Of a DNA stretch of 64,000 nucleotides, positions 11,039 to 28,440 are shown piece by piece (the first letter of the stretch is position 1; each line of letters opens with the position of its first letter). The stretch spans positions 13,102 to 77,101 of the forward strand of contig DASZZD010000016.1 of assembly GCA_035545015.1 (NCBI GenBank), given 5' to 3'. A program made the translations under genes and the position numbers. The notes under the pieces were generated by a model. That model was not told the DNA's origin, searched no databases, and worked only from the letters and a program-made list of their open reading frames with translations. Source of the stretch: Phycisphaerae bacterium. Lineage in GTDB: Bacteria; Planctomycetota; Phycisphaerae; WQYP01.

Positions 11039-14000
11039 TCAGCCCTGGAGTTCCGCGAGGTTTTTCTCGACGGCGCCGAGTTCTTCTTCCTGCCTGGCGA
11101 GTTGATCGCGCAGGCCGCGCAGGACAGCCGCGGGGGCTTTGGCGACGAAAGATTCGTTGCCCAGCTTGTTGCGGTTGCCGGTGATGTGCTTGAGGAGCTG
11201 GTCGCGTAGCTTGGCGAGCTTGGCGGCTTCCGCGGCTTTGTCGATGACGCCGCCGATGAAGATTTGTACGTCCGGCAGGACGCGGGCGGCGGCATCGGGG
11301 GGCTTGGCGGCGTCGAGGGCGTTTTGCGCGATGGGCGAACCGGTGAGGGACTCGATCACGGTGCGCGACTGGTCGATGGCCTGCTGCGTGGCGGCGTTGC
11401 GCGGGGCGAGCACCACCGCTTTGCCCTTGGCGGCGGGATAGCTGTTCTGGATGTCGCGAATCTGGCTGGTGATGGATTGAATGATGGCGATCTGCGCCTC
11501 GGCGGCCGAGTCGGCGGCTCGGGCGTCGGCGATGGGCCAGGCAGCGGTGACCAGCAGCGAGGTGCGGTTGGGCAGCTTGCTCCAGAGTTCCTCGGTGATG
11601 AAGGGCATGACGGGGTGGAGCAGCTTGAGCGACGTTTCCAGGCAGTGCAGCAGGATCGATTGCACCGTGGAATCGCCCGCGCGGATGCGGGCCTTGGCGA
11701 TTTCGAGGTACCAGTCGCAGAGGTCCGTCCAGAAGAAGGCGTAGAGGGCGGTGGCGACTTCCGCAAAGTGGAAGGCGTTGATCGAGGATTCGACGGTGGC
11801 GATGGTGGCGGCGAGACGTGAGAGAATCCAGCGGTCTTCCAGATGCTGAGTGCTCACGACCGAGGACGAAATACCGAGGGAAGGGGTGTCTTCGGCGAGG
11901 TTGGAGAGGATGAAGCGGCTAGCGTTCCAGATTTTGTTGGCGAAGTTGCGGCCGATGTCGAATTTCGGCGAGGTGTTGGCGCCGGTTTTGGCGTCTTTGA
12001 CCACGGGCATGCGGATGTCCTGGGTTTCGGTGGCCATCTGCGCGAGCGTGAAGCGCAGGGCGTCGGCGCCGTGGGAGTTGATGATGTCGACGGGATCGAC
12101 GCCGTTGCCTTTGGATTTGGACATGGTGCGGCCTTCGCCGTCCTGGATGACGGCGTGGACGTAGACGTCGCGGAAGGGGACATCGCCTTTGCAGTAGAGG
12201 CCGAACATGACCATGCGGGCGACCCAGAGGGTGAGGATGTCGCGCGCGGTGGAGAGGAGGGAGGTGGGGTAGAAGGTGTGCAGCAGTTGGTCGTCGGGGC
12301 TGTCGGAGGTGCCGGTGGCGGGCCAGCCCATGGTGGAGATTGGCCAGAGGGCGGAGGAGAACCAGGTGTCGAGGACGTCGGGGTCCTGCTGATAACCAAG
12401 CTTTTCTAGGTCACGCTCCTTATCCGGATTACCGGGTGCAACGGCAGTCCAGAGATACCAATTCCCTGCATCGTCGCGAAGTGCTCGAGTCCACGAGTGC
12501 CACTGATCCGTAGGACTTTTGCTTGTTCCGTAATGCACGTCTCCGCGACGGACTCCTTCCGCTGCTTGCACGCCCCAATTCGGAATATTGGTTTCAATAA
12601 ACCATTTATCGTTCTCTGTGGCAGGGCCATGCCACACGGGGATGCGATGCCCCCACCAGAGTTGGCGGGAGATGCACCAGTCGCGTTTTTGGCCGAGCCA
12701 GTCGAGGTAGCCTTTGGCGTAGCGGTCGGGGGTGATTTTGACACGGCCATCGGTGACGGCGTCCATGGCGGCCTGCGCGAGGCCGGAGGCGCGCTCGCCA
12801 TTGGCGAGGGTAATCCCAACCCCATCAGAGCCGCGACCGTGAGGGAGCGGTTGCAGCGAAGCGGCAAATTGCTCTCGATCGAGGTAAGCGCCGCTGAGAT
12901 TTTCCCCTTGCTTGTGCAGCGTATAATCCGCGGCTCCGGCAATGTCCTCTTCCTTCCAGAGGTAGGGCGTCGACCCGTGACGACTCCAGACCTTTGCATC
13001 CGCGGAGACCAATTCTGCTTCGCGCAAGCGGCGGGTGGCATACGACTTGAAATCGTTCATCATCTTCTCGGGGGAAGCGTCTCCCGAAACCACGGCATGT
13101 ACGTGGGTGGAACGCACATTGACCGCGTGGATCATCCATCCTCGGTGCTTTGCCACTTCTACCATTGTTTGGCAGATGGTTTGGCGTTGTTGTTCGGACA
13201 AGACCACGGGAGCACTTTTGGCGTTGGCCATTTCGCGTGCGAACAGCTCTGGATCGGGTGCGACGAAAGGTGTTCCGTAGTCGTTGTGATCGGCATCGAC
13301 GGAACCTGGTTCTTCGCCGCGGAGCCAGGTCGCGTAGGTGTGGAAGGTCAGGAAATAGGCGAGGGCGTTGGCGGAGGAAGGGTGTGCGCCCGGAGATTGC
13401 TCACGCAAACCGCTTCCTGACGGGCGCGGCTCTGATGGGGACGGCTCCATGATGTCGCCCATGCGGACGAACCATTGGTCGCTCAGGTAGGGTTCAATGG
13501 GCGTTTTGCTGCGGTCGCTGTGGCCGACTTCGTGTTCGTGCGGTTTCACCTCGGCGATGAGGCCGAGGGCTTCGAGGTCGGCGAGCACCGCCTTGCGCGC
13601 GGCGCTGGCGAATTTCAGGCCCGCATAAGAGTATTGCTTGCCCAAAAAGACTCCTGACCCCTTTTCGTTGACTTTGCCGTCGGGGGTGAGCAGGTTGATC
13701 TGTTCGAGGTGGTGGCGGACGCCGGTCGCGTAGTCGTTGGGATCGTGGGCGGGCGTGACTTTCACGACGCCGGTGCCGAAGGAAGGATCGACCAGCAGGC
13801 CGTCGGTGATGATGGGAATTCTGCGGCCCACCAGCGGCACGATCACGTGCTTGCCGTGGAGATGCGTGTAGCGTTCATCGTCGGGATGCACGGCCACGGC
13901 GGTGTCGCCGAGCATGGTCTCGGGGCGGGTGGTGGCGACGATCAGGTATTCGTCCGGCGAACCATCGACGGGATATTTGATCGAGGTCATCTGTCCTTTG

Positions 14001-14599
14001 ACGGTCTCGTGATAAATCTCATCGTCGGCGACGGCGGTTTGCAGGTGCGTGTCCCAGTTGACCAGGCGTTTGCCGCGGAAAATGAGGCCGTCTTTGAACA
14101 TTTTGAAGAAGGCTTCGCGCACGGCGCGGGCGCAGATGTCGTCCAGCGTGAAGCGCGTGCGGTCCCAGTCGCAGGAGGCGCCGATGGACTGAAGCTGCGA
14201 GAGGATGCGCGTGCCGAACTGTTCCTTCCATTCCCAGATGCGACGCACGAGTTCCTCGCGGCCCAGATCGTGGCGCGACTTGTTCTCCTTCTCAAAAATC
14301 GTCTTCTCCACGACCGCCTGCGTGGCGATGCCCGCGTGATCGATCCCCGGCATCCACAGCGTGTTGTCGCCCTTCATCCGGTGATAGCGCGTGAGAATGT
14401 CCTGAATCGTCCCGTTGATCGCATGGCCCAGGTGCAGCGCCCCGGTGACATTCGGCGGCGGAATCACGATCGAAAACGCCTTGCGCGCATCACCCTCTCC
14501 CCCAGCGACCGCATGAAAGACACGCGCCTCCAGCCACCGCTGATAGACGGGCTTTTCCACACTTTTGGGATCGTACTGCGGGGGGAGATCAATCTTCAC
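11039..14599 (-). CDS. valS: Valine--tRNA ligase carrying an in-frame HUH transposase insertion
   Basis: PPPNVTGALHLGH, ATTRPETMLGD, DWCISRQLWWGHRIP, DPDVLDTWFSS, TMSKS, C-terminal coiled coil; GTG start after AGAGGA. Confidence 0.96.
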   Translation of the reverse strand: MKIDLPPQYDPKSVEKPVYQRWLEARVFHAVAGGEGDARKAFSIVIPPPNVTGALHLGHAINGTIQDILTRYHRMKGDNTLWMPGIDHAGIATQAVVEKTIFEKENKSRHDLGREELVRRIWEWKEQFGTRILSQLQSIGASCDWDRTRFTLDDICARAVREAFFKMFKDGLIFRGKRLVNWDTHLQTAVADDEIYHETVKGQMTSIKYPVDGSPDEYLIVATTRPETMLGDTAVAVHPDDERYTHLHGKHVIVPLVGRRIPIITDGLLVDPSFGTGVVKVTPAHDPNDYATGVRHHLEQINLLTPDGKVNEKGSGVFLGKQYSYAGLKFASAARKAVLADLEALGLIAEVKPHEHEVGHSDRSKTPIEPYLSDQWFVRMGDIMEPSPSEPRPSGSGLREQSPGAHPSSANALAYFLTFHTYATWLRGEEPGSVDADHNDYGTPFVAPDPELFAREMANAKSAPVVLSEQQRQTICQTMVEVAKHRGWMIHAVNVRSTHVHAVVSGDASPEKMMNDFKSYATRRLREAELVSADAKVWSRHGSTPYLWKEEDIAGAADYTLHKQGENLSGAYLDREQFAASLQPLPHGRGSDGVGITLANGERASGLAQAAMDAVTDGRVKITPDRYAKGYLDWLGQKRDWCISRQLWWGHRIPVWHGPATENDKWFIETNIPNWGVQAAEGVRRGDVHYGTSKSPTDQWHSWTRALRDDAGNWYLWTAVAPGNPDKERDLEKLGYQQDPDVLDTWFSSALWPISTMGWPATGTSDSPDDQLLHTFYPTSLLSTARDILTLWVARMVMFGLYCKGDVPFRDVYVHAVIQDGEGRTMSKSKGNGVDPVDIINSHGADALRFTLAQMATETQDIRMPVVKDAKTGANTSPKFDIGRNFANKIWNASRFILSNLAEDTPSLGISSSVVSTQHLEDRWILSRLAATIATVESSINAFHFAEVATALYAFFWTDLCDWYLEIAKARIRAGDSTVQSILLHCLETSLKLLHPVMPFITEELWSKLPNRTSLLVTAAWPIADARAADSAAEAQIAIIQSITSQIRDIQNSYPAAKGKAVVLAPRNAATQQAIDQSRTVIESLTGSPIAQNALDAAKPPDAAARVLPDVQIFIGGVIDKAAEAAKLAKLRDQLLKHITGNRNKLGNESFVAKAPAAVLRGLRDQLARQEEELGAVEKNLAELQG
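12820..13440 (-). mobile_element. RAYT/IS200-like Y1 (HUH) transposase flanked by 33-bp inverted repeats, in frame within valS
   Basis: YFLTFHTYATWLRG, STHVH (HUH), FKSYATRRL, VWSRHGS, DY; IRs at 12820-12852 and 13408-13440 match at 30/33. Confidence 0.85.
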
Positions 14600-14618
14600 G
14601 GGGTCCTCTGCCTTATTG

Positions 14619-15110
14619 TTATCGCGGCTTGCACGGAATGATCCCCGGCACCGCATCAAAATCGTCGTCGTTGGTAATGAGATACTGAATCTGTTCCCGC
14701 TGCATCAATGCCACATGCGACGCGTCATCCGTGAGCAGTCGATGCCGGGATGCCACCTGTGCCGTCTTTTCAAGGTCGTTCGCGTCCATTGAAAGGACCG
14801 TGAGCGGCCACCGCCTCAGCGCTTTCGCCGCGGCGTGGTATCCCGAAAGAGTTGGAATAATCTCCGGCCGCCGCTGAACGTACGCCAATGGCTTCATCGT
14901 TTGATAGCGCGTGTGCACTTCCGACAACATCACACGATGCAACGTCTCAGACAGCACTGCCGGGCTGACGAAGCCGGCTACGTCGCCGTTTTCCATCCGC
15001 CTGACAAAAGCTTCGCTTGGCGCAGAGAACGTTGGATTCTGCGTAAAGTTGTAGACCAGGATGTTCGCGTCGACAAAGCACCGCGCGCCCGAAGGCGGTT
15101 CAGGCGTCAT
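14619..15110 (-). CDS. PIN-domain (VapC-like) toxin
   Basis: FVDANILVY, VLSE, LLTDDASHVA, LITNDDDFD acidic PIN motifs. Confidence 0.9.
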   Translation of the reverse strand: MTPEPPSGARCFVDANILVYNFTQNPTFSAPSEAFVRRMENGDVAGFVSPAVLSETLHRVMLSEVHTRYQTMKPLAYVQRRPEIIPTLSGYHAAAKALRRWPLTVLSMDANDLEKTAQVASRHRLLTDDASHVALMQREQIQYLITNDDDFDAVPGIIPCKPR

Positions 15111-15414: not shown

Positions 15415-17124
15415 TTACCGCCCACCTTTTTCCCCCTCGTGCAGCAAATGATACTCCACGCCGTCGACAAGCGCCTGCCAGCTTGCGTCGATGATGTTTT
15501 CGCTGACGCCTACGGTCCCCAGCAGGCCGTGCGCTTCGGGCCCGTTGTCCCCCCCCACCGCGACCGCTCCGTGGGGGCTGCGAAACTCGATCATCACGCG
15601 CACCCGGGCGGCGGTCGCCGCGGTCGAGTTCACCACGCGCACCTTGTAATCGACCAGGCGCAGGGTTTCGAGCGAGGGGTAATGTTTCAGCAGCGCCGCG
15701 CGCAGGGCGTTGTCCAGCGCGTTCACCGGGCCGTCGCCTTCGGCGGAGGCGTTCACTTCCTTGCCGTCGACCTTCAGCGTCAGCGTCGCCTTGGTCACCG
15801 GTCGCCCGCTGCCCGAACGATGCACCGCCACGCGGTAATGATCCAGCTCGAAGAACGCCCGGTGCCGGCCGATCACCTTGCGCACGATCAGCTCAAACGA
15901 CGCCTCGGCCGCCTCGAATTGATAACCTTCCGCTTCCATTCGGGTCACTTCGTCGAGCACTTTTTTCTGCGCCGCACGATCATTTTCGATGCCGAACTTT
16001 TTGCCCGCCTTGGCCGCGATGTTGGATACGCCCGAAAGCTCGCTTACGAGAATGCGGCGCGTGTTGCCCACGCTCTCGGGGGGAACGTGCTCGTAACTGC
16101 GCGCCAGCTTGTTGACCGCGTGCACGTGCATGCCGCCCTTATGGGCGAACGCGCTGGGGCCCACGTAGGGCTGGCCGTTGACCAAGTTCAGGTTGGCGAT
16201 CTCATACACGTAGCGCGAGGCCTCTGTGAGTTGCTGCAGGCCTTGAGCGCCGGGGCGCAGGCATTCGTAGCCGAGCTTCAGTTTCAGATTGGCGATCACC
16301 GTGGTGATGTCGACGTTGCCGCAGCGTTCGCCGATGCCGTTCATCGTGCCCTGCACATGCGTCGCGCCGGCCTGCACGGCCGCGAGCGCGTTGGCCACCG
16401 CCAGGCCACAGTCGTTGTGCGGATGGATCCCAATCGCGCACCGATCTCCCACGCGCTCTTTCGCCGCGCGCACAAGCTCGGTGACGCGTTCCGGCATCGA
16501 TCCGCCATTGGTGTCGCACAGGCACACGATTGCCGCCCCCGCTTTGGCCGCCGCTTCGATGGTCTTGAGGCCATATTCCCGGTTGGCAGCGGTGCCATCG
16601 AAAAAATGCTCCGCATCGTAGATCACCCGCCGCCCCTGCTCGGTAAGCCACGCGACCGAGTCGCTGATCATCGCCAGGTTTTCGTCCAGCGACACGCCCA
16701 GCACTTCCGTCGCATGCAGGTCCGAGGTCTTGCCGACCACGGTAACGCAGCGCGTGCCGGCGTCTTTGAGGGCGTTCATGCCGACATCGTCCCGGGGATG
16801 CACGCCTTTGCGGCGCGTCATGCCGAAGGCGACAAGCTGCGCGTGATGCAGCTCCAGCGAGCGCGCTTCCTGAAAAAATGTCGCGTCCTTCGGATTGGAA
16901 AGCGGGTAGCCGCCCTCGACGTAATCCACGCCGAGTTCATCGAGCCGGCGGGCAATCAGCAGCTTGTCCTGCACCGACAGCGAAACGCCTTCCCCCTGCG
17001 TGCCATCGCGCAGCGTGGTGTCATAAATCTCCACGCGCGCCTTGCCCGCGGTCCCCTCGCTTCCGGTTTTCCGACGGTCCCCCGCCCCCCGGGTCCCCAT
17101 CGCATCATCCGATGAACTTGCCAT
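15415..17124 (-). CDS. cimA: Citramalate synthase
   Basis: YDTTLRDGTQGEG, YDAEHFFDG, HPHNDCG, GERCGN, AFAHKGGMH, LeuA-type regulatory domain. Confidence 0.92.
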   Translation of the reverse strand: MASSSDDAMGTRGAGDRRKTGSEGTAGKARVEIYDTTLRDGTQGEGVSLSVQDKLLIARRLDELGVDYVEGGYPLSNPKDATFFQEARSLELHHAQLVAFGMTRRKGVHPRDDVGMNALKDAGTRCVTVVGKTSDLHATEVLGVSLDENLAMISDSVAWLTEQGRRVIYDAEHFFDGTAANREYGLKTIEAAAKAGAAIVCLCDTNGGSMPERVTELVRAAKERVGDRCAIGIHPHNDCGLAVANALAAVQAGATHVQGTMNGIGERCGNVDITTVIANLKLKLGYECLRPGAQGLQQLTEASRYVYEIANLNLVNGQPYVGPSAFAHKGGMHVHAVNKLARSYEHVPPESVGNTRRILVSELSGVSNIAAKAGKKFGIENDRAAQKKVLDEVTRMEAEGYQFEAAEASFELIVRKVIGRHRAFFELDHYRVAVHRSGSGRPVTKATLTLKVDGKEVNASAEGDGPVNALDNALRAALLKHYPSLETLRLVDYKVRVVNSTAATAARVRVMIEFRSPHGAVAVGGDNGPEAHGLLGTVGVSENIIDASWQALVDGVEYHLLHEGEKGGR

Positions 17125-17135
17125 ACATGTCCTTC

Positions 17136-17165
17136 AATAAAAACGCCCTGCGCGGGGCAGGGCGT
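17136..17165 (-). terminator. Intrinsic terminator (attenuator) just upstream of cimA RBS
   Basis: Minus strand ACGCCCTG-ccccgcg-CAGGGCGT then TTTTATT, followed by GAAGGA RBS. Confidence 0.75.
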
Positions 17166-17191
17166 CCAGCGATCAATGCGTGTGGCAAACC

Positions 17192-17347
17192 CTACCCGTT
17201 TCCCGAAAAAACGCGGACCCCGCCAATAACGGCGCGGACAGAAAACCCGCCGAGCACCCTCGTCAGGATTCCGCCAACCCCGCGCGCGGCCGCATCACCC
17301 CTCACGGGATGGCCGCACGCCAGGATTCTTGGAACATCTGTCCGCAC
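17192..17347 (-). promoter_or_regulatory. Putative Ile/Leu/Val-rich leader peptide (51 aa) of cimA attenuator
   Basis: GAGG-n5-GTG start; ...VGGILTRVLGGFSVRAVIGGVRVFSGNG*; stop lies within GGGTAGGG, complementary to the terminator 5' arm. Confidence 0.6.
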
Positions 17348-17439
17348 GTAAACCTCGCCTTCAAGACACGCCATTATCCGTATTTCCCCGGCCCCGGTCA
17401 AACCCGCATTATTCTGCGAGCAGCCCGTCCGCCCGTCCA

Positions 17440-18432
17440 CTACGCCGGCCCCACCCCGTGCGTGCGCATCTGGATCGCGTAAATCGACTTGCTCACGGCC
17501 ATGAAAAGCGTGTGTCCGTCCTTCCCGCCGAAGCACGTGTTGCCGACCCAGCTATCGGCATCAATATGATCCAGCCGCTTGCCTTCTTTGCTGTAGATCG
17601 TCACGCCGCGGTTGCTGACGTAGACGTTGCCGTCCGAATCGATGGTCATGCCGTCCGATCCCGCATTGCAGAATGGCTTTTTGTCCGTCAGCGTCCCGTC
17701 CGGCTGGATCGTGTAGGACCACGTCTTGTTCGCCCCGATGTCCGAGACGTACAGCGTCTTGCCGTCCGGCGTCCCGATGATGCCGTTGGGCTTCCTGAAA
17801 TCCGTCACCACCGGCTTGAGCGTTTTGGCCGCCACGTCGAGATAGTACACATACTCCCCCGGCAACTGCGAGGTCGATTCGCGCAGGCCCTTCCACCAGT
17901 CGCGCTTGTACAGCGGATCCGTCAGATACATGTTCCCGTCCGGCCGAATCCATACATCGTTGGGGCCGTTGAGCAGCTTCCCCTGATAATCCTTCACCAG
18001 CACCGTCACCTTCTTATCCGGGGCGATCGACCACAATTCATTTTTCTCATCCGCGCAGGCGATCAGATTCCCCGCCGGGTCAAAGCTCATCCCGTTGGCG
18101 TAGTTGCTGGGATGCATGAACGTCGAGAGTTTCCCGCCGCTGTAATCCCCCTGGCGCTCTTTGCCGTCGAACGTCCACTTCAAGATGCTGTTGTTGGGCT
18201 GATCGATGAAGTAGACATCGCCGTTTTTGTCTGAGGTGCAGCCCTCGGTAAAGGCAAAATCGCCCGCCAGTTTGACCGCCTTGGCGCCCGGCGCTATCGG
18301 ACTCTCCGCCGGGCGCGCCGCCTCCGCATTGCCCATCGCCGCACTCCTTGAAGCCCCGCCGCCCGCCGCTCCCGCCGCCGCAAGCGCCGCCACAACCACC
18401 GCGCCCAGCGCCGCACCGTGCCAAATCCGCAT
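17440..18432 (-). CDS. SMP-30/gluconolactonase family protein
   Basis: FTEG, NGPNDV, FTDP-like LTDP, PNGI, SDGMTIDSDGNVYV; signal peptide. Confidence 0.92.
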   Translation of the reverse strand: MRIWHGAALGAVVVAALAAAGAAGGGASRSAAMGNAEAARPAESPIAPGAKAVKLAGDFAFTEGCTSDKNGDVYFIDQPNNSILKWTFDGKERQGDYSGGKLSTFMHPSNYANGMSFDPAGNLIACADEKNELWSIAPDKKVTVLVKDYQGKLLNGPNDVWIRPDGNMYLTDPLYKRDWWKGLRESTSQLPGEYVYYLDVAAKTLKPVVTDFRKPNGIIGTPDGKTLYVSDIGANKTWSYTIQPDGTLTDKKPFCNAGSDGMTIDSDGNVYVSNRGVTIYSKEGKRLDHIDADSWVGNTCFGGKDGHTLFMAVSKSIYAIQMRTHGVGPA

Positions 18433-18585
18433 AAAATGCCTCCATCGGCCTTGCCGCAGGCACTGATCCTACCCGCCGCGCCCGACTTCCCGCCAGTGAC
18501 CCCCGCCGCGCCGCCACCCTCCGCCCCCGCCGACCCTCGCCCAGCCCAGCGGCAGGGTGCGGCTTTTGCATGTACAATGCACCCC

Positions 18586-19344
18586 ATGGACCCTATCGTC
18601 CTTATCCACGGCATGCCTCTCGACTCCTCCATGTGGACCGAGCAGGCCGCCTTCCTGCGCTCCCGCGGGCACACCGTCCTCACGCCCGATCTTCCGGGCT
18701 TTGGCAGCGCCCCGGCCTTGGCCAAAGATCGCACCTCCATCGAAGCCTATGCCGCCGTCATCCGCGAGCTGATCGAAACCCAGGCCGGCGGAAGGGCCAT
18801 GGTCGGCGGCTTCTCCATGGGCGGATACGTGCTGCTCGCCCTCCTGCGCGAAGCCCCGCATCTCGTGTCCACCGCCATGTTTATCGACACCCGCCCCGAC
18901 CCCGACACTTCCGAAGCGCGCAAAGGCCGCCTCACCGCCATCGCCGGCATTGAAAGCCAGGGCCTCGCTCCCTTTTTCGACGCTTCCATCGCGCGCCTGA
19001 TGCGCAAGAAGCCCGATCCTGCCACCAAAGCGCGCATCCGCGCGATCATGGACCGCCAATCCGCCCCCGGCATCATCGCCGGACAACTCGCCATGAGCCG
19101 CCGCCGCGACCAGACCGACCTGCTCGCCGATCTGACTATCCCCGTCCTGGTGCTGGTGGGCGCCGAAGATGTCATCACGCCGCCCTCGGTGGCCCTCAAT
19201 ATGCAGTCGCACATGCCGCACGCGATGGTCGTGCAGGTGGTCGGCGCCGGGCATCTGGCGGTCATGGAGCAGCCCGCCGCCGTCAATGGCCATCTCGCAA
19301 CGTTCCTCGCCACCATTCGACACGCAGCCCCCAGCGGCGCATGA
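18586..19344 (+). CDS. Alpha/beta fold hydrolase
   Basis: LIHG, PDLPGFG, GFSMGG nucleophile elbow, GAED, AGH. Confidence 0.92.
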   Translation: MDPIVLIHGMPLDSSMWTEQAAFLRSRGHTVLTPDLPGFGSAPALAKDRTSIEAYAAVIRELIETQAGGRAMVGGFSMGGYVLLALLREAPHLVSTAMFIDTRPDPDTSEARKGRLTAIAGIESQGLAPFFDASIARLMRKKPDPATKARIRAIMDRQSAPGIIAGQLAMSRRRDQTDLLADLTIPVLVLVGAEDVITPPSVALNMQSHMPHAMVVQVVGAGHLAVMEQPAAVNGHLATFLATIRHAAPSGA

Positions 19345-19465
19345 AGCAATCCCGCGTCCGCATCCCCACCCCCGCGATCCTGGCATCCGCCGAACGATCA
19401 CGCGTTCTCCCTCCCGGCCCCGCCACCCGCCACCCCTGATTCCCAGGCCGGCGATGCGCTCCCCT

Positions 19466-20263
19466 TCAGCCGCCCTTCTTCGCGGGAGCACCGTCATCAT
19501 CCAGCGGGTCCGTGCCCGTCACCGCCCCCGCCGCGCTCACCATCAACTCAAACTTTTTGCCGCCGTCGGTGACATCCACCGCATAGGACCTCTGCTTCCT
19601 GGCCACCACCTCGCTGGCGCTGTCGATCGTGGTGTTCGGACGGGCCTTGGTCACGGCCGCTTTCACCGTCGCGGGCAAGTCCGCCACCGCCATGTCCGTT
19701 TCCTCCTCCGTCATGTCCCCCTGCAGCGTGAACGTGTCGAAATGCGTCTTGCCGTCCTTTTCGAACTCCGCGATGTAGAAGAACCGCTCGCTATCGACTT
19801 CAAACGACAGGGCGTTCACCTTCGCATCGCCCAGGGCCTTTGTGATGGCCGCGCGCACCGCCGCCGGCGCCGTTTCCACTTCCAGGTAGGTTGAATCATC
19901 ATTCGGATCGTCATCGGAAGCGTCGACAATCCCCAGATATTGCGCCCGTCCGGACGCCAGCACCGTCTCCGTCTTTCCCGCCGCTCCCGCCGTCTGCACC
20001 TTCACAAAATACAGGTGTCGCCCACTATCCACCTGTTCCTCCGCCCCGGTGATCGTTCCGCCGGGCACCTGCTTCTCGATCATCGCCTCGACATTCGCCG
20101 GCAACGTCTCCTGTGCCTCCTGCTGCGCCCCGGCTTTTTCGCCGCGCGCCGCCGCCCGCCCGCCCCCTCGGCCCGATCGCGCACCATTGGCCCCAAACGC
20201 GCCGCCCCCTGCCCCCGCCAGCACGGCACAGAGCATTCCCACCTGGAGCCACCGGGTTTTCAT
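19466..20263 (-). CDS. Secreted PepSY-like/BLIP-like repeat protein
   Basis: Three repeats of LPAxVxAAIxK followed by beta strands; signal peptide. Confidence 0.7.
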   Translation of the reverse strand: MKTRWLQVGMLCAVLAGAGGGAFGANGARSGRGGGRAAARGEKAGAQQEAQETLPANVEAMIEKQVPGGTITGAEEQVDSGRHLYFVKVQTAGAAGKTETVLASGRAQYLGIVDASDDDPNDDSTYLEVETAPAAVRAAITKALGDAKVNALSFEVDSERFFYIAEFEKDGKTHFDTFTLQGDMTEEETDMAVADLPATVKAAVTKARPNTTIDSASEVVARKQRSYAVDVTDGGKKFELMVSAAGAVTGTDPLDDDGAPAKKGG

Positions 20264-20278
20264 CGGATACCTCGCCAC

Positions 20279-20560
20279 TTATCGCAGATGGTTCGCATGG
20301 TTCAGATTGGCCGCCGGCGCCAGGGGCTTGGCGGGCGCGGCCGGGGTGACCGTCTTGATCGTATGGACCACGGCTTTCCTGATACGCCTGTGATGCTTGT
20401 GCCGATGCCTGCGAGCCTTACGCGCCTTCTTGACGACGACGATCACCTTCCCGGCATGAATGACCACGTCCTGGCCATTCTGCGTCACCGTCGCCGCCTG
20501 GGCCGATAGCCCGATTCCCATGGCCAGAACCGTCGCCAGCAGCCACCGTCCCACTTTCAT
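20279..20560 (-). CDS. Small secreted, highly basic hypothetical protein
   Basis: Signal peptide MKVGRW...SAQA; KKARKARRHRHKHHRRIRK; GGAG RBS. Confidence 0.6.
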   Translation of the reverse strand: MKVGRWLLATVLAMGIGLSAQAATVTQNGQDVVIHAGKVIVVVKKARKARRHRHKHHRRIRKAVVHTIKTVTPAAPAKPLAPAANLNHANHLR

Positions 20561-20755
20561 CTGCGTTGCTCCCGAAAGACCAGAACCCCATTCTTCACGC
20601 ATGAGGTTGCGGCGAGTTTCAATTCCTCCGCCGCCACGCAGGCGACAGGGTGTGCTTCCATGTTCACAAGCGACGCCTCGAACCGAGGGACGCCACGTAT
20701 TTCTGAAAATCTCAAGACCGCCCCATCATCGCCGGTGCACCGCTGGGAAAGAAGC

Positions 20756-20786
20756 AAAAAAAAGAAAAGCCGCGCACCTGCGCGGC
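20756..20786 (-). terminator. Intrinsic terminator after pilin-like copy 1
   Basis: GCCGCGC/GCGCGGC stem followed on minus strand by a long T tract. Confidence 0.65.
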
Positions 20787-20812
20787 CTTTCCTCACTGCC
20801 TGTTTGGAGCCG

Positions 20813-21643
20813 TTACTTCGAGCTGGCTGCCGAGTTTTCCCAGAGATAAATGATCGTATAGCAAGCGCTTGTGCCATACGGATTGGGGAACTGCGCCATC
20901 GTCTTGATCTTGGCGTTCTGGCCGAATTCCACGTGGGCATCGCCATACAAGCCGTTGGAACCGGCGTTGCCGGCATGCGGAACCGAGATCACATCATAAA
21001 TCCGGTCGGACATAAGCCAGATGTCCTTGGGGAACTGGGTGGTCTTGGTGTAGGCCGCACCGTAGAAGGGGCCGCCACCGGGGCCAGACACATTCTGTTT
21101 GCCGTTGGCCAGCGCCGAGAACGTGGGGTTCTTGCCCGAGTGCACCTGGTACTCATAGCCGGAGTGGTTGTTGAAGGGGGCATTGAGGAAGGTGTAGGGA
21201 TCGGTGCTGGAGGTGGGCGCCTTGGTGTACTGCCAGGAGCCATTGGATTGTCCGGGGCAGTAGAAGACGCGCGGATCCTTGACGATGCCGTCATCCATGC
21301 ACATCAGCTCGCGCCAATGGCCGTCCTGAGTCTGCCCGTTGGGGAAGGTATAGATCGTGGGGGGGCCGCTGGCGGGATTGCGACGCAAATACAAACGCTC
21401 GGTCGTGGTGAAGTCGGAATCGATGTAGCCGCGGGAGGTTTCCGGCGGGAGGTTGTTGTCGAATTCAGCCGCATAGGTTGTCAGCGCAATGCCAATCTGG
21501 TGCAGATTGCTGGCGCAGGCGGTTTTCTTGGCCTGGTCCCTGGCACGCGCGAGGCTGGGCAGGAGGATCGAGATCAGCAGTGCAATGATGGCGACCACCA
21601 CCAGCAGCTCGATCAGGGTGAAACCGGAACGACGACGCTTCAT
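20813..21643 (-). CDS. Prepilin-type (DUF1559-type) protein, tandem copy 1
   Basis: [51 protein letters not shown]. Confidence 0.93.
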
Positions 21644-21702
21644 AGAAAACAGCCTCCAAAGGGGTTGGGCAGGTCAGTGGACGCAGAATATTGGGCGCAA
21701 CG

Positions 21703-21745
21703 TTCACACCCATGAAAATGCAGCGAGTTTTTCACACCCGTGAAA
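21703..21745. promoter_or_regulatory. Tandem quasi-palindromic 15-bp sites (possible TF operators)
   Basis: TTCACACCCATGAAA (21703-21717) and TTCACACCCGTGAAA (21731-21745) upstream of copy 1. Confidence 0.45.
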
Positions 21746-21916
21746 GGAAGGTCCGGATATCCATCGGTTGGCGTATCTCCAATAGAATGCACAAATTTTA
21801 CGTCGATTGCAACAAAAATAAAATACCATTTTGCAATTTCCGCAAATAATGGCGCAAACCGCAATCGACCCCCTCGAACGCCGACGTTCTTGCGCGTTTC
21901 CAGCTCCCCGCGCAGC

Positions 21917-21955
21917 AAAAATCGACAGGAGGTTGTGCGAGCACACAACCTCCTG
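21917..21955 (-). terminator. Terminator hairpin after pilin-like copy 2
   Basis: Perfect 12-bp stem CAGGAGGTTGTG/CACAACCTCCTG with T tract on minus strand. Confidence 0.7.
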
Positions 21956-21997
21956 CCGCCTGCGCGTTTTCCCCCCACCTTCCCATGTTCTCCGCCT

Positions 21998-22810
21998 TTA
22001 CCTACTGCTGGCTGCCGAGGTTTCCCACAGGTAGATCAAATTGTAAACCTGCGACTCCGAATAGGGATTCGGGAACTTGGACAGGGTCTTGATCTTGACG
22101 TTCTGGCCGAACTCCACATGGGCATCGCTGTAGAGCCCGTTGGACCCCGCATTGCCTGCGTGCGGGATGGAAATGACATCATAGATTTTGTCGGACATCA
22201 GCCAGATATCCTTGGGCATCTGGGTCAACTTCGTATAGGCCGCGCCGTTGAACTTGCCATCCACGTTGTCGCTGGGCCCGTTAAACGGGGGGTTCATCGT
22301 GGGATTCTTGCCCAGGTGCAACTGATAAGAGTATCCCGAGTGGTTGTTGAAGGGCGCGTTGAGGAACGTGTAGGGGTCCGTGCTGGAGGTCGGGGCCTTT
22401 GTGTATTGCCAGGACCCGTCGGTCTGGCCAGGGCAGAACATGACGCGAGGGTCCTTGATGATGCCGTCGTCCATGCACATCAATTCGCGCCAGTGGCCGT
22501 CCTGAGTCGTCCCATTCGGGAAGGTGAACGTGGTATAGCCGCGACGCAGGTACAGGTTTTCCGTCGATGCCGTGCCGTAACCATAGCTCTTGAAGTGGCG
22601 CGAGGTTTCCGGCGGAAGGTTGTTATTGAATTCCGAGGCATAGGTCGTGAGCGCCACGCCAAGCTGGTGGAGGTTGCTGGCGCATGCCGTCTTTTTCGCC
22701 TGATCACGAGCGCGGGCGAGGCTCGGCAAAAGAATGGAGATCAGGAGCGCGATAATCGCAACCACCACGAGCAGTTCAATGAGAGTAAAGCCGGTTCGAC
22801 GACGCTTCAT
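21998..22810 (-). CDS. Prepilin-type (DUF1559-type) protein, tandem copy 2
   Basis: [14 protein letters not shown]...; same scaffold as copy 1; GGAGG RBS. Confidence 0.93.
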   Translation of the reverse strand: MKRRRTGFTLIELLVVVAIIALLISILLPSLARARDQAKKTACASNLHQLGVALTTYASEFNNNLPPETSRHFKSYGYGTASTENLYLRRGYTTFTFPNGTTQDGHWRELMCMDDGIIKDPRVMFCPGQTDGSWQYTKAPTSSTDPYTFLNAPFNNHSGYSYQLHLGKNPTMNPPFNGPSDNVDGKFNGAAYTKLTQMPKDIWLMSDKIYDVISIPHAGNAGSNGLYSDAHVEFGQNVKIKTLSKFPNPYSESQVYNLIYLWETSAASSR

Positions 22811-23070
22811 GGCAAAAAGCCTCCATTTGGGGGGGAACAAAAAAAGAAAAAAAGGCGCCCCCGGAAAGGCAGGCAACCTCGGCATGTCGTCGCCAAAAAG
22901 ATTTGTCACGCGGTACGAAACGAGAGATGAGGGATTTGTACCCCCCCACTATCCGCCCGGCCCCGCCTTCATTCAAGGACAAAATGAGATATTTTTGAGA
23001 ATCTTTTTAGAAGTTGATGTGAGTTTATAACTATTTGTCCAAACATACCTTAGGTCGTCCTTGGTGACGC

Positions 23071-23115
23071 AAAAACAAAAAAGCATCGGCATCATGCGAC
23101 GCATGATGCCGATGC
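23071..23115 (-). terminator. Intrinsic terminator after pilin-like copy 3
   Basis: 15-bp stem GCATCGGCATCATGC/GCATGATGCCGATGC followed by a T tract on minus strand. Confidence 0.8.
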
Positions 23116-23139
23116 CTGTGTGCGTGGCTGAAAACAAGG

Positions 23140-23979
23140 TTACTTACTGCCGGCGGCGGAGCTTTCCCACAGATAAATCATCGTGTAGGAATTCGATTCC
23201 GAGTAGGGGTTCGGGAAGGCTGAGAGTGTCTTGATCTTGGCGTTCTGGCCGAACTCCACGTGCGCGTCGCCATACATTCCGTTGGCTCCAGCGTTGCCGG
23301 CGTGTGGGATCGAGATCACATCATAAATCCTGTCGGACATGAGCCAGATATCTTTGGGGAATTGGGTGGTCTTCGTGTAGACCGCGCCATTAAAGGGGCC
23401 GCCACCCTTCACGCCCGGCACATTAAACGAGCCATTGGCCAGCGCCGAGAAGTTGGGGTTCTTGCCCAGATGCAACTGATATTCATAACCAGAGTGGTTG
23501 TTGAACGGGGCGTTGAGGAAGGTGTAGGGATCGGTGCTGGAGGTGGGCGCCTTGGTGTACTGCCAGGAACCATCAGATTGTCCGGGGCAGTACATGACGC
23601 GCGGATCTTTAATGATCCCATCATCCATGCAGATCAGCTCGCGCCAATGGCCGTCCTGAGTCTGGCCATTAGGGAAGGTGAAGATGGTGGGTTGGCCACT
23701 GGCGGAATTGCGACGCAGGTACAGATGCTCGGTACCCAAGCTACCATACGCGTAGTGCGTGTAGCCGCGGGAGGTTTCCGGGGGCAGGTTGTTGTCAAAT
23801 TCGGCCGCATAGGTTGTGAGAGCAATGCCAATCTGATGAAGGTTGCTGGCGCAGGCGGTCTTTTTGGCCTGGTCCCTGGCACGCGCGAGGCTGGGCAAGA
23901 GGATCGAGATCAGCAGCGCGATGATGGCGACCACCACCAGCAGCTCGATCAGGGTGAAACCGGAACGACGACGTTTCAT
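23140..23979 (-). CDS. Prepilin-type (DUF1559-type) protein, tandem copy 3
   Basis: Same scaffold; closest to copy 1. Confidence 0.93.
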
Positions 23980-24211
23980 GCGAAAATCTCCAAGAGGCGA
24001 GCGGTGAATGCGGGCGGCACCGTGTCACGGTTCTCCGACCACCGCGCCCGATACAAAGTGTCAAAACAGTCAGTCAACAACGTCGCGGCCGCGACGCTGG
24101 AAGCGCCGCCAGCCGCGACGGAATGCCCTGTACGAACCGAAGTCCGCAATTCAGGCACTGTGAACTCCTACCGGTAACTGCTTCATCTGCCGGAAGCGAC
24201 CGTAGCTGCAA

Positions 24212-25045
24212 TTACTTGCTGCTCGCGGCGGAGCTTTCCCACAGATGTACCATGTTGTAGGTGTCGGTCGGATGGTAAGGATTGGGGAAGACCTGCAGGT
24301 ATTTGATCTTCGGGTTCTGGCCAAACTCGACGTGGGCGTCGCCGTACAGGCCGTTCGAGCCACAGTTGTTGGCGTGCGGGATCGAGATCACGTCGTAAAT
24401 CTTGTCCGACATGAGCCAGAGGTCCTTGGGAAACATGGTCGTTTTCGTGTAGACGGCCCCATTGAACGGACCGCCGCCGGGACCTTTGACATTCGGAGCG
24501 CCGTTGAACGGGCCGGCGGAATTCGGATTCGAGCCCAGGTGCAACTGGTAGGAATAACCGGCGTGACTGGAGAGGACGTCGCAGAAGGCGTACGGGTCGG
24601 TGCTGGAAGTGCTCGGCTTGATATACTGCCAGGAGCCATCGGTCTGGCCAGGGCAGAACATAACTCTCGGGTCCTTGATGATTCCATCATCCATGCAAAT
24701 CAGCTCGCGCCAGTGGCCAATTTGGGTCTGGCCATTCGGGAAGGTATATATGGTCGGGGGGCCTCCGGCCGGATTGTCACGCAGGTAGAGGTGTCTGGTC
24801 GCGCCTGTACCATACCCGTAGTCCGTGTAGCCGCGATCCGTTTCCGGCGGCAAGTTGTTTTCGAATTCCGCCGCGTACGTTGTGAGCGCGATGCCCAACT
24901 GGTGAAGGTTGCTGGCGCAGGCCGTCTTTTTGGCCTGGTCTCTGGCCCGCGCGAGGCTGGGTAAGAGGATTGAGATCAGCAGCGCGATGATGGCGACCAC
25001 CACCAGCAGCTCGATCAGGGTGAAACCGGAACGACGACGTTTCAT
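24212..25045 (-). CDS. Prepilin-type (DUF1559-type) protein, tandem copy 4
   Basis: Same scaffold with two additional Cys (AFCDV, NNCGS); GGAGG RBS. Confidence 0.93.
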
Positions 25046-25418
25046 GAACAACCTCCCAAAAAGAAAGCGCGCAGGTCCAAACGAGGCGTAAAACACACGT
25101 TTCAAAATCGCCGCAGTTGTGGCGGCAGGTGACAGGACCAACCTATAAAAACCGAGCCATTCAGATATGGCGATGCCGGCTCGGGCTACATCTTCAGCAT
25201 GTCAGACAGACGCTCTCCACGCAACTGTATTTCCGCGGAATTTCGACGTTTTTTGCACTTGATCGCGCCTTCTGACGCCTGGCCAAAAGTCGTTTTTTCA
25301 AATGCGCCGACAGATAAAGCGTTCTTGTATTTTGCGACACCGCGGAGCCTTTCCCTTTCCTTGCCAGCGGCGTTATTCTCACTACTCGTTCTTCCGCAAT
25401 ACATATTGGGCAATCCCT

Positions 25419-26222
25419 ATGAATCGCCTCTCGGAGACTTTCGCCAACGCTCGTCAGCGCTCTCTAAAACTCTTGTGCCCGTTTCTCACGGCCGGATTCC
25501 CAGCGCCTCACAGCACGGTAGATTTGCTTATCGCGGCCCAGCAAGGCGGGGCAGGCGTGGTCGAACTGGGAATCCCTTTCTCGGATCCCGTCGCCGATGG
25601 CCCGGTGATTCAAGGCTCCTACACCCAAGCGCTGCTGCAGGGCGCCACGGTGGAGAACGCGCTCGACGCCCTCGCACAGGCACGCCGCCGCGGGCTGACG
25701 GTTCCGGTGATGGCGATGGTTTCCTTCTCGATTATTTTCAAGCGCGGCACGGAGCGGTTTGCGCGCCAGTGCGCCCAAGCCGGCGCCGATGGTCTGATTC
25801 TTCCAGACGTGCCTCTTGAAGAAGCGCCGGCGATCGTCGCGGTGCTGCGAGAAAACAATCTGCGCACGGCCCTGCTGGTCGCCCCCACAACGCCGCCCGA
25901 AAGGCGGGCCGCCATCGCCAGGCTCTGCGACGGATTCATCTATTATTTGTCAGTTTCGGGCATCACCGGCGAGCGTAAGGCGCTTCCCGCGGACATCGCC
26001 CCCAATGTCGCCGACTTGCGACGGGCCACCGATGCGCCGATTTGCGTGGGCTTCGGCATTTCGACGGCGGAGCAGGTGCGGGAAGTCACGCGGGTGGCGG
26101 ATGGTGCGATTGTGGGCAGCGCGCTGATCCGGCGGCTTGCGGACAAGGTCGAGGCATCCCCTGCCGAGCAGGCGGAAGCGGTGCGGGGGTTTGTTGCGGA
26201 GCTGGCGACGGGCCTGGCGTAA
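25419..26222 (+). CDS. trpA: Tryptophan synthase alpha chain
   Basis: ELGIPFSDPVADGPVIQ, LVAPTT, SVSGITG, VGFGIS, ADGAIVGSA. Confidence 0.96.
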   Translation: MNRLSETFANARQRSLKLLCPFLTAGFPAPHSTVDLLIAAQQGGAGVVELGIPFSDPVADGPVIQGSYTQALLQGATVENALDALAQARRRGLTVPVMAMVSFSIIFKRGTERFARQCAQAGADGLILPDVPLEEAPAIVAVLRENNLRTALLVAPTTPPERRAAIARLCDGFIYYLSVSGITGERKALPADIAPNVADLRRATDAPICVGFGISTAEQVREVTRVADGAIVGSALIRRLADKVEASPAEQAEAVRGFVAELATGLA

Positions 26223-26492
26223 TTCATCTTTATGAAACTCGGCGAAGCCGCAGACGCTATCGATACGTAAAATTTTTCAGGCTGTTGCGTGTTTTCGGTC
26301 GTCTTGGCGCTTGCTTTCCTGAACGCCCACCGGCTCGGCTGCCGAATTATCTGGCGGATAGCCCTTGGGTCTTCCGCGGCCCTCAAGTACCATGGCGGGC
26401 CAGATTGGCGACGCCCGAGAATCACCGATTCGGTGCTTTCCCGTTCCCGGTACTCCTGCCGCGGTCGAATTTCCTATCTGCGGGAGGCTATC

Positions 26493-27185
26493 ATGGCGGG
26501 AAAAGCAGCGGCCACGACTAACGATCCACGCAAACCCGGGTCTAACCCCATGAGCCAGCGGATGCCAAACGATGCCCAGGCCCACAGCCTTCAGGAGCAG
26601 GCCAAGCAGGCCGCTCATGAACTGGGGCTGGTGATCGCCTCGAAAGCAGGGGATCGCCGCGCGTTCGGTCTGTTGGCGCAGCACTATCAGCGGCAATGCG
26701 CCGCGGTGGCGCTGCGGCTCCTTGGCAATACGCACGATGCCGCCGAGCTGGTCCAGGACGCCCTGGTGAAGGCGTTCAAAAGCCTCGACCAGCTCCAGCA
26801 ATCCGAACGCTTCGGCCCATGGCTGATGCGGATCGTCACCAACCTGGCCCTGAACTACCGCCGGTCGCGCGGCCGGAGACAGGCGCTGTCGCTCGAGCAA
26901 ACGCTCGGGGATTCGACGGAGGGTGATGATCTTCGCGCCAGCGTGGCAGGGAGCGTTCTCGACGCGCCCGATCAACCCGCGGCCTCCGCGGAACTCGGCG
27001 ACGCCATCCAGATCGCGCTCAACGGCCTGCCGGAAAAGCAGCGTTTGGCGCTGGTGATGTTCGCCATCGAGAAAATGCCGCAGAAGGATGTGGCCGAAGT
27101 GTTGAACTGCTCCGTCGAAGCTGTGAAGTGGCACGTGTTTACCGCCCGGAAGCAACTGAAGAAATCACTCGGGAACTATTTGTAA
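26493..27185 (+). CDS. ECF sigma-70 factor
   Basis: GDRRAFGLL, DAAELVQDALVKAF, FGPWLMRIVTN, region 4 LPEKQR...VAEVLNCSVEAVK. Confidence 0.93.
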   Translation: MAGKAAATTNDPRKPGSNPMSQRMPNDAQAHSLQEQAKQAAHELGLVIASKAGDRRAFGLLAQHYQRQCAAVALRLLGNTHDAAELVQDALVKAFKSLDQLQQSERFGPWLMRIVTNLALNYRRSRGRRQALSLEQTLGDSTEGDDLRASVAGSVLDAPDQPAASAELGDAIQIALNGLPEKQRLALVMFAIEKMPQKDVAEVLNCSVEAVKWHVFTARKQLKKSLGNYL

Positions 27186-27248
27186 GTCTCCCGCGTTTTG
27201 AAAAACGACTGGCCGCCATGTTGTGGCGGCCCGATATTTCTGGAAGCC

Positions 27249-27974
27249 ATGCAGCACGACCACCAACATCTCGACTTCCTGATCAGCCAACACGTGGATG
27301 GATCGCTGGATGCGGCGGGCAAGAAGTCCGTCGAACAGCGGCTGCTGACGGATCCCGAAGCGCGCAAGCTGTATCAGGAACATCGGGAAGTGCAGGATGT
27401 CCTGGACGATTGGGGCAGCCGGATTCCGATGATCAACTGGGAGGACTTCGACAGGAAGCTGGCGGGGCGGCTGGAGAAGGAAACGGTGGGGACGCCGGCG
27501 CAGCGGACGCCGGGCTGGTGGAAGCCGGTCGCCGCGGCTGCGGCGCTGTTCGTGGCGGCGTGGGGGGGCTATGCGTGGCATGCGATTTCGGGCAATGGAT
27601 CGCAAACGGCGGTGGCGACGGTGGCGCGGCCTGCTGCGGGCGGTGGCTTCGCGACAGCGTCCGTGAAGATAGATGACAACGGTTCGGCGCCGGTGGCAAG
27701 CTCGGCGCGGTTCCGCGTGGATGATTCGCCCATGAGTCTGGGAGCGCCGGAAGCGACGGCGTCGAATGTCAGTGTGGCGGCGCCCGGTGATGTGGCGGCG
27801 TCGGAAGCGCTTCGCGATGCGGTGATGAGCGGTCTTTCGCATCTGAGCAACATGGCGAACATCGACAGCAAGCCGGGGTCGGCGTCGGCGATGAATGGCT
27901 TTGAGAAGCCGAATCATGCGTCGGATGATGCGGCCGCCCCTGTGGATCGCGACGCGGTTCCGCCGCTGCCCTGA
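27249..27974 (+). CDS. Membrane anti-sigma factor
   Basis: LISQHVDGSL N-terminal ASD, TM segment VAAAAALFVAAW; directly follows ECF sigma. Confidence 0.75.
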   Translation: MQHDHQHLDFLISQHVDGSLDAAGKKSVEQRLLTDPEARKLYQEHREVQDVLDDWGSRIPMINWEDFDRKLAGRLEKETVGTPAQRTPGWWKPVAAAAALFVAAWGGYAWHAISGNGSQTAVATVARPAAGGGFATASVKIDDNGSAPVASSARFRVDDSPMSLGAPEATASNVSVAAPGDVAASEALRDAVMSGLSHLSNMANIDSKPGSASAMNGFEKPNHASDDAAAPVDRDAVPPLP

Positions 27975-28002
27975 TGGGTCTGAGCTTTCCCTGCCAAGAG
28001 TG

Positions 28003-28440
28003 TTACAGATGATCGTCGGCCGGCGAATACAAGCGCGGGTGCGGCTGCATGCGCGACTGGACGCAGTTGCCGCAGAGATAGAAGCGTGCCGGCTGGGGGT
28101 AGTCGATCGAATCGGTGTCATCGCCTTCGATCCACTGGCGGCAGGGCGTGTTGACGGCGCCGCAGAGTGCGCAGGTGGTGGGTCCGCCGCCGTTGCGGAG
28201 GAGGAGTTCTTCGGAGAGGCGGGGATGCTTTTTCAATTCACCGCGGCCGTGGGCGGGGAGGATTTCATGCGCGAGGTGGTGGCGTTTGAGCCATTCGTTG
28301 AGGGGGCCGATTTCCTGCTCGTCGCAGAAACGTATCCAGGTTTTGAAGGGCGGATCGAAGAAAAAGCCCATGTCTTCGAGGCGTTCCTGCACCAGGGGGT
28401 CGGGCCAGGTGGTGATCTTCACCGTTTTTCGGGCAGTCAT
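28003..28440 (-). CDS. Hypothetical protein with CxxC...CxxC zinc finger
   Basis: CALC and CGNC; globular, non-shadow-like composition. Confidence 0.65.
   Translation of the reverse strand: MTARKTVKITTWPDPLVQERLEDMGFFFDPPFKTWIRFCDEQEIGPLNEWLKRHHLAHEILPAHGRGELKKHPRLSEELLLRNGGGPTTCALCGAVNTPCRQWIEGDDTDSIDYPQPARFYLCGNCVQSRMQPHPRLYSPADDHL

Follow-up and report, generated by a model that had tools for sequence, protein, structure and literature searches.

A tandem array of four diversified prepilin-type genes, conserved beside trpA in one genus of Phycisphaerae, with a probable history of segmental exchange between copies

Four tandem genes for predicted prepilin-type proteins lie on the minus strand beside trpA in a 64,000-nt stretch of DNA from a Phycisphaerae bacterium (GTDB lineage Bacteria; Planctomycetota; Phycisphaerae; WQYP01; assembly GCA_035545015.1, contig DASZZD010000016.1, positions 13,102 to 77,101). 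The whole stretch is called the window here, positions are counted from its first letter, and the genome under study is G000. In order of position the genes are copy A (20813..21643, 276 aa), copy B (21998..22810, 270 aa), copy C (23140..23979, 279 aa) and copy D (24212..25045, 277 aa), numbered 1 to 4 in an earlier note on this DNA. They are transcribed in the order D, C, B, A. The four intact tandem paralogs described in that note are confirmed, and the locus is a genus-conserved tandem array. We consider it likely that the array consists of diversified, separately terminated prepilin-type paralogs which occasionally swap patches and have no programmed switching device. To judge from their sequences, the four genes form a small Phycisphaerae prepilin-type subfamily distantly related to the DUF1559 and H-X9-DG pilin-like proteins. 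The copies appear to have exchanged segments (head, loops and body, tail) by gene conversion or an equivalent homologous exchange, so that different parts of a gene have different histories. Exchange within the genome seems to have been mostly old, and purifying selection appears to dominate. The history of the array is one of ordinary gene-family evolution, well supported and without sign of a dedicated variation mechanism.

Conservation of the array and histories of its segments

Full-length matches at ≥65% identity were found in 4 of 41 related genomes, all of the same genus, and in a large protein collection about 20 clusters matched at E ≤1e-100, followed by one at 3e-61 and the next at 3e-33. 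More distant full-length relatives (29-38% identity) bear source names of the DUF1559 or H-X9-DG type. Within the genome under study there is a fifth full-length paralog, E, on another contig (67% identity), and the other prepilin genes share only the N-terminal 60-odd residues. The array stands beside trpA in three other genomes of the genus (G001, G002 and G003). The sister genome G003 has four copies at the same place, named G3_1 to G3_4 by position, and it aligns collinearly with the window over 17118-23980 and 24212-28086. In G001, three copies lie between trpA and the same hydrolase gene, and G002 has a copy beside trpA at a contig end, so that copy number across the species is 4, 4, 3 and at least 1.

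The stretches preceding A, B and D have as their orthologs the stretches preceding G3_1, G3_2 and G3_4, respectively (77-79% identical). These are the spacer upstream of A (21644..21997; 264 of 333 positions identical, z 74), the spacer upstream of B (22811..23139; 236/307, z 65) and the region upstream of D, which reaches the divergent trpA (25046..25301; z 31). The flank downstream of A is also orthologous in G003. Since the upstream spacers are orthologous between G000 and G003, the array positions of A, B and D are older than the species split, and the array as such predates the split of at least two species. The D-C spacer (23980..24211) has no ortholog in G003 (alignment score 72; mean of shuffles 68.9). 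The G003 spacer that precedes G3_3 (positions 6830-7180 of L013) is a diverged copy of that upstream of G3_2 (5670-6040; z 44). With no counterpart for the D-C spacer and the third spacer of G003 copied from its second, this junction was evidently rebuilt differently in the two species.

The earlier note had called the copies near-identical, which the alignment does not bear out: pairwise identity is 71-84% at the nucleotide level and 76-87% at the protein level, and synonymous divergence (dS) is 0.58 for A and C and 0.9-1.8 for the other pairs. The three variable patches which it reported are real. In the numbering of C, residues 70-100 vary at 24 of 31 positions, residues 174-199 at 18 of 26 and residues 249-267 at 11 of 19, against 24/73 and 13/49 in the two cores and 5/69 in the N-terminal helix. 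Patch 1 (23680..23772 in C) directly follows the long N-terminal helix, is modelled with a predicted local distance difference test score (pLDDT) of about 60, and contains a 5-codon insertion confined to A, C and D. Patch 2 (23383..23460) is coil in the model and has a longer form common to the same three copies, loops 1 and 2 of B being short. Patch 3 (23179..23235), after FPNPY, is likewise coil in the model, has a tree in conflict with that of the body, and in A has a unique sequence. The shared peptides quoted in the note are all present. Among sites that divide the copies two against two, 25 split AC from BD and 13 and 10 support the other two splits.

Gene conversion as the source of the mosaicism, as the earlier note had proposed, is supported by paralogs that are closer to one another than to their syntenic counterparts and by conflicting partition trees. 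In the whole-gene tree, (D,(A,C)) is supported at 100/99 and B groups with G3_2 at 83/94. A, the closest paralog of C (84% nucleotide and 87% amino acid identity), is nearer to it than the members of the positional pairs A-G3_1 (76%), C-G3_3 (74%) and D-G3_4 (73%) are to each other. Paralogs are therefore closer than orthologs although the duplication is older than the split, which is the pattern of concerted evolution. In the loops partition the clade (A,C,D) is supported at 100/99 and (D,G3_3) is rejected by the approximately unbiased (AU) test (0.026), whereas in the tail partition (D,G3_3) is supported at 98/98 and (A,C,D) is rejected (AU 0.029). By identity the tail of C is closest to that of G3_4 (81%) and the tail of D to that of G3_3 (80%). 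As the clades of this test were named after the identity table had been seen, breakpoints were also scanned blindly with the corrected Akaike information criterion (AICc), a measure that also rewards rate differences. The best single breakpoints fell at nt 210 (change -73.8) and nt 750 (-57.2). With the partitions so defined, neither the body tree nor the whole-gene tree is accepted by the tail (AU 0.010 and 0.013), the body rejects the head and tail trees (AU <1e-40), and the head, while compatible with the whole-gene tree (0.11), rejects that of the body (AU 0.009). Head, body and tail thus reject each other's trees, and no single tree fits all segments; such a fit would have refuted the proposal in the terms of the earlier note. 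The motifs shared by B and D had been a further candidate for a conversion tract (identical run at nt 391-412, Bonferroni p 0.009); since they fit the main AC|BD split and the outgroup states, they are read as retained ancestry.

The 5' head has a pattern of its own. Between C and D, 8 of 150 sites differ in the head (24896..25045 in D) against 82 of 369 in the core (Fisher p 8e-7), even though the body of D is the most diverged of the four. The corresponding p for A and D is 1.6e-4, and five control pairs showed no difference between head and core (p 0.41-1). The note's observation that copy 2 stands apart in its 5' DNA holds: 22 of the 86 sites unique to B lie in nt 1-126, against 2 of 71 for D in nt 1-150. 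Over the first 31 codons, A and D use the same codon as C at 26/30 and 28/30 identical residues, as compared with 25-70% in twelve other prepilin genes of the genome whose similarity is N-terminal only. Codon bias as the cause of the shared head was rejected, the commonest codon being used at 16 of 30 positions in the head of C against 49% in the rest, and the minor CGT codon being kept three times. The head of D has probably been homogenised with those of C and A, as the sequence comparison suggests. As a mosaic signal, the 5' identity stands as a pattern but is not private to the array, part of it being nucleotide conservation of the head across the genus and across communities.

The ratio of nonsynonymous to synonymous divergence (dN/dS) per segment, a check which the earlier note had proposed, was below 1 in every partition (head 0-0.09, cores 0.02-0.14, loops 0.03-0.43, tail 0.05-0.40; the test is blunt at such high dS). 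The patches evolve faster, without net positive selection. Between the species, dS is 0.60 for the single-copy paralog E, 0.68 for the hydrolase gene and 1.06 for trpA, and the value of 0.58 for A and C is similar, so that their homogenisation is about as old as the species split. Copy B has 86 unique sites, mostly synonymous, and its dS to G3_2 is 1.6 with a dN of only 0.045, a dS above that of neighbouring genes between the species (0.6-1.1). Candidate reasons for this value are that B escaped homogenisation, that conversion took place in G003, or that it is saturation noise.

Several observations weigh against this account of segmental exchange. The pairwise homoplasy index (PHI) test is not significant on the four copies (p 0.13) and gives p 0.042 on eight, although on the four copies of G003 it gives p 0.016. 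GENECONV-like tracts, or longest identical runs, are short and of borderline significance after Bonferroni correction (0.009-0.07). The clades compared between loops and tail were, as said, chosen with the identities in view, and the cross-partition AU test includes each partition's own best tree among the candidates. For most pairs dS is near saturation (0.9-2.5), which makes the dating rough. The heads of the related copies G1_a, G2_a, G2_b and G3_4 differ from that of C at about 7-9 of the first 93 nt. In the rhizosphere sequencing run X7, words from the head reach a depth of 175-610 against about 5 for the rest (35-120x). Together with contig ends that diverge from the heads, this depth means that the same head DNA is common to many genes or organisms in these communities, and nucleotide conservation of the head by selection, or assembly collapse of a shared head, may add to the signal. 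As side observations, the first ~60 bases of A, C and D (21582-21643, 23915-23979 and 24983-25045) have a depth of 15-48 in runs X1 and X3, and many contigs run from the gene heads into unrelated sequence.

Sequencing runs, strain variants and competing explanations

Pieces of the array are present in all four sequencing runs examined, from three studies, at a depth of about 5. One contig of 1935 nt (21608-23542) contains the start of A, the whole of B, both spacers and half of C without a difference, and contigs from the three studies tie gene bodies to their downstream spacers, and B to both spacers, with 0-5 differences. Against this, the short contigs in public data stop at the heads of copies A, C and D, and so the order of the D piece relative to the C-B piece is given by the genome assembly alone. 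In runs X2 and X7 parts of the array, including the loop-1 region of A, are without cover, which was not taken as evidence.

Close relatives of copy A occur as strain variants. The proteins P0002 and P0123, from two other assemblies, equal A except in 11 of 276 columns, and 9 of these 11 changes turn the long loop 1 of A into RRGYTTFTF, which is exactly the loop of B. Their contig also encodes C with one change. A point against reading them as exchange products is that these swapped-loop variants are known as protein records only. A partial protein, P0122, agrees with A over 177 residues without a change, and its last 28 agree in the same way with G3_4. It is encoded on a 2628-nt contig of a metagenome bin, where its neighbours match G3_3 and the start of G3_2 without a difference. 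At the point where P0122 switches, 17 polymorphic sites in a row (alignment nt 723-763) are the same in A and G3_4. P0122 has arisen either by recombination between lineages or as a chimera produced in assembly at this run. In run X7, a 299-nt contig (depth 4.5) joins an exact 5' part of D (24840-24968) to 43 other letters and a B-like stretch (22435-22561) with 16 differences in 127; it could be a D allele with another middle in a close strain. A metagenome scan for variant contigs yielded, among 48 candidate stretches, one that encoded a relative, over the N-terminal part only (53%, residues 1-66). At loops 2 and 3, no variants above the 10% reporting threshold were detected in the four runs, in which contigs drop rare variants.

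That the assembler built a false array from strain variants of only one or two genes, or mixed their patches, is extremely improbable. The source is a metagenome-assembled genome of 104 contigs, the shared heads are points where public contigs end, and the identical 5' stretches could be collapsed repeats. However, the spacers are unique, the two inner spacers and both flanks are orthologous in the independently assembled four-copy G003, G001 has a syntenic three-copy array, and contigs of three studies link bodies to spacers with at most five differences. With its pieces in independent runs and the same layout in relatives, the array is real, and the assembly artefact considered in the earlier note does not apply. 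Birth and death of genes without conversion, in which each species duplicates and loses copies independently and the mosaics reflect homoplasy, ancestral states and unequal rates, is decidedly improbable. It would account for the difference in copy number between species, for a D-C spacer without ortholog, for shared B-D motifs that fit the AC|BD split (25 sites against 13 and 10) and for the non-significant PHI result on the four copies, and the copied spacer upstream of G3_3 means that unit duplication does occur. It does not accommodate spacers upstream of A, B and D that predate the split together with a clade of A, C and D at 100/99, nor partition trees that reject each other, nor a copy D whose tail goes with G3_3 (98/98) and whose loops go with A and C (100/99).

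Exchange between strains or species, in which allelic segments are imported from co-occurring relatives with the conserved head and scaffold as anchors, is unlikely as an explanation of the array. The apparent hybrid P0122, with its body of A, its tail of G3_4 and its G003-like neighbours, the run of 17 sites common to A and G3_4 at its switch point, and the tails of C and D with their closest matches in G3_4 and G3_3 all speak for import. On the other hand, the 2628-nt bin contig could equally be a chimera formed at the shared run, import leaves unexplained why only three copies, all in one genome, have the long form of loops 1 and 2, and it is compatible with intragenomic conversion rather than exclusive of it. 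Programmed surface variation, that is, loops shuffled at high frequency by dedicated gene conversion on a surface that meets ligands or phages, is very improbable. Type IV pilins have a variable alpha-beta loop directly after the N-terminal helix. The concentration of variable sites in three loop patches, the position of patch 1 at that very place, strain variants that differ from A mainly by a swapped loop, and the low-depth X7 contig that joins the exact 5' part of D to a B-like middle would all agree with such a program. Nevertheless, because all four copies are complete with a Shine-Dalgarno sequence and ATG, there are no silent cassettes, and none of the copies resembles pilS as PMC4534519 describes it, without promoter and ribosome-binding site. 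The dS of the closest pair (0.58) is about that of between-species orthologs (0.60, 0.68 and 1.06), dN/dS is below 1 in loops (0.13-0.43) and tail (0.17-0.40), and a regular-expression search that found 22 G-quadruplex (G4) motifs in the whole window found none on either strand of 20300-25500. The spacers are not flanked by inverted repeats, no invertible segment was found, no recombinase is among the 16 neighbouring products scanned, and no variants above the threshold were seen at loops 2 and 3 in the four runs. The analogy to pilin antigenic variation drawn in the earlier note is accordingly not supported: silent cassettes, G4 motifs and an invertible repeat were not found, the exchanges are old, and dN/dS is below 1.

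We also regard as quite unlikely an open repertoire at the population level, in which all four copies are expressed from their own promoters, loop patches are exchanged continually between paralogs and co-occurring relatives, and the head serves both as targeting signal and as recombination anchor. If true, such a repertoire would yield alleles like A with the loop of B or D with a foreign middle, and a free-living planctomycete would then have a counterpart of pilin variation without cassettes, with phages or grazers that exploit the fibres as the presumed drivers. Our preferred reading is that of the genus-conserved array with occasional patch swapping.

Predicted proteins and features of the locus

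Each of the four products begins with a short basic leader ending in Gly, followed by Phe at +1, Glu at +5 and a hydrophobic helix of roughly 50 residues, after which comes an enlarged head of predicted pilin-like form. The leader has the form MKRRR(S/T) plus 11 further residues in all four copies. PF07963 (N_methyl) matches all four at 33.2-35.4 bits (cut-off 21.2) and TIGR02532 at 27.7-29.4 (cut-off 16.3), and by leader, helix and hidden Markov model scores the products are of the prepilin type. The assignment to DUF1559 given in the earlier note is marginal: PF07596 (DUF1559, SBP_bac_10) scores 23.8-25.5 bits, just over the cut-off of 23.3, but covers only 37-38 of 268 profile positions (2-38). 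No match to TIGR04294 (H-X9-DG) at E ≤0.01 was found in the four copies, and the family matches 6 of 65 aligned relatives. In place of H-X9-DG (a His, nine residues and Asp-Gly, as read from the name of the family), the copies carry H-X11-D-A-H, in which H226, D238 and H240 are invariant or nearly so in the 65 relatives. C43, C131, D238 and H240 are invariant in them.

An AlphaFold model of C built on these 65 relatives has a pLDDT of 88.7 and shows a helix (residues 10-60) followed by a mixed head domain with beta strands. A Foldseek search against the PDB gave no match at E ≤0.001, whereas 17 of the best 20 rows of VIA-align are pilins or pseudopilins, at low Z (2.9-5.1), and sequence matches to solved pilins end near residue 75. 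Within the head domain, 67 of 96 variable sites lie in coil against 70 of 123 invariant ones, a weak excess (Fisher p 0.067). Elsewhere in the genome there are two loci for prepilin peptidase (Peptidase_A24) over the cut-off, 18 T2SSF domain matches and five secretin matches. From family and fold, the proteins are predicted to function as pilin-like subunits. A prepilin peptidase encoded elsewhere in the genome would cut the leader, the cut proteins would serve as subunits or accessory components in one of the several type II secretion or type IV pilus-like machines that the genome encodes, and the four products would differ in predicted exposed loops.

All four copies align from MKRRR, with GGAG(G) 7-10 nt upstream of each ATG. 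Longer frames from GTG or TTG in B and D are unlikely starts, the ATG being set by paralog alignment and ribosome-binding site. Strong intrinsic-terminator-like hairpins followed by a T-run stand on the minus strand after C (23081..23117, 17 pairs), B (21923..21958, 16 pairs) and A (20761..20794, 15 pairs), as the earlier note had stated for its copies 1-3. None was found after D, in the D-C spacer. In all, the terminator scan gave 13 such sites, where shuffled sequence gave 5.6 (sd 2.2). Within the genome, none of the four upstream spacers is related to another (local-alignment z ≤0.3), again in agreement with the note. With a terminator behind three of the copies and a separate upstream region before each, three of these regions being conserved between species, separate transcription of the copies is plausible. 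A conserved AT-rich block in the spacer upstream of A is a candidate promoter. Rfam gave three matches at E ≤1 on 20300-25500, all below the gathering threshold and all on the terminator hairpin of A.

The neighbours of the array include trpA and genes for an extracytoplasmic function (ECF) sigma factor, a polyprenyl synthetase, a PepSY-like protein, a hydrolase and a gluconolactonase-like protein, and no pilus machinery was found among the 16 neighbouring products scanned. Just beyond trpA, at 26289-27974 on the plus strand, the ECF-type sigma factor gene is followed by a gene for a 258-aa product without Pfam match, a pair kept beside the array in G003, G001 and G002. A C7 run (coding strand) lies inside loop 1 of A (21359-21365), and T7, T7 and C7 runs just upstream of the ribosome-binding site of B (22829-22853) are kept in G003 with slightly different lengths. 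None of these homopolymers had length variants in the four sequencing runs. At 11039-14659 on the minus strand, a valyl-tRNA synthetase-like product of 1206 aa contains, at residues 486-553, a Pfam match to the IS200-like Y1 transposase domain (E 1.7e-6; 28.6 bits, cut-off 23), which separates the two halves of its synthetase core. The segment 56001-57000 has a GC content of 0.47 against 0.58-0.70 in the rest of the window, and a tRNA scan of the whole window found none.

Relation to known systems and meaning

Concerted evolution is the state in which paralogs of one species are more alike than orthologs in another (Wang and Chen 2018, PMC6053082). As in concerted evolution by ectopic gene conversion, the paralogs studied here are closer than their counterparts in another species despite an older array, and they have segmental mosaic histories. 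In contrast to that pattern, homogenisation is partial and patchy, B escaped it, identity is only 71-84%, and the genes are for diversifying envelope proteins rather than dosage-balanced core genes. As an evolutionary mechanism this is textbook.

Neisseria opa and the tandem full-length genes of Mycoplasma gallisepticum, described in PMC4534519, are families of variable surface genes that are complete and separately expressed. The array resembles them in having several complete copies, variation in few exposed regions and recombination between copies. Unlike the opa- and vlhA-like families as portrayed there, it has no phase-variable repeat and belongs to a soil organism without known host immune pressure. 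Only six homopolymer runs of 7-8 nt were found in the search for phase-variable repeats, and length variants in the four runs occurred only at 20756 and 24053, neither inside a gene nor at a start site. For pilE/pilS of Neisseria, the same paper describes one expressed gene with silent copies that lack promoter and ribosome-binding site, and a guanine-quartet element close to the recipient gene. That system and the present one both have pilin-type proteins whose surface patches vary, copies in tandem and conversion over short tracts, but here there is no single expression site, no defective silent copy, no G4 motif and no sign of high-frequency one-way transfer.

With the planctomycetal DUF1559 and H-X9-DG families the four proteins share the prepilin leader, the N-terminal helix, the region just after it, a similar C-terminal His...Asp-x-His and the phylum Planctomycetota. 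They differ from them by a Pfam match that covers 37-38 of 268 positions at the cut-off, an unmatched TIGR04294 and the H-X11-D-A-H spacing. Those families have dozens of members per genome, whereas here there are five full-length copies, with matches in 4 of 41 genomes. DUF1559-type paralogs of unknown function number 68 and 74 in PMC10632474 and PMC2754498, respectively. DUF1559-type pilin-like proteins are the largest paralog families of planctomycetes, and no function for them was found in the literature searched. The locus shows which parts of such a protein are free, namely the three loops, and which are fixed, namely the helix, a pair of cysteines and the His...Asp-x-His motif. Movement of the variable parts from copy to copy is likewise evident, and the locus thereby offers targets for structural and expression work.

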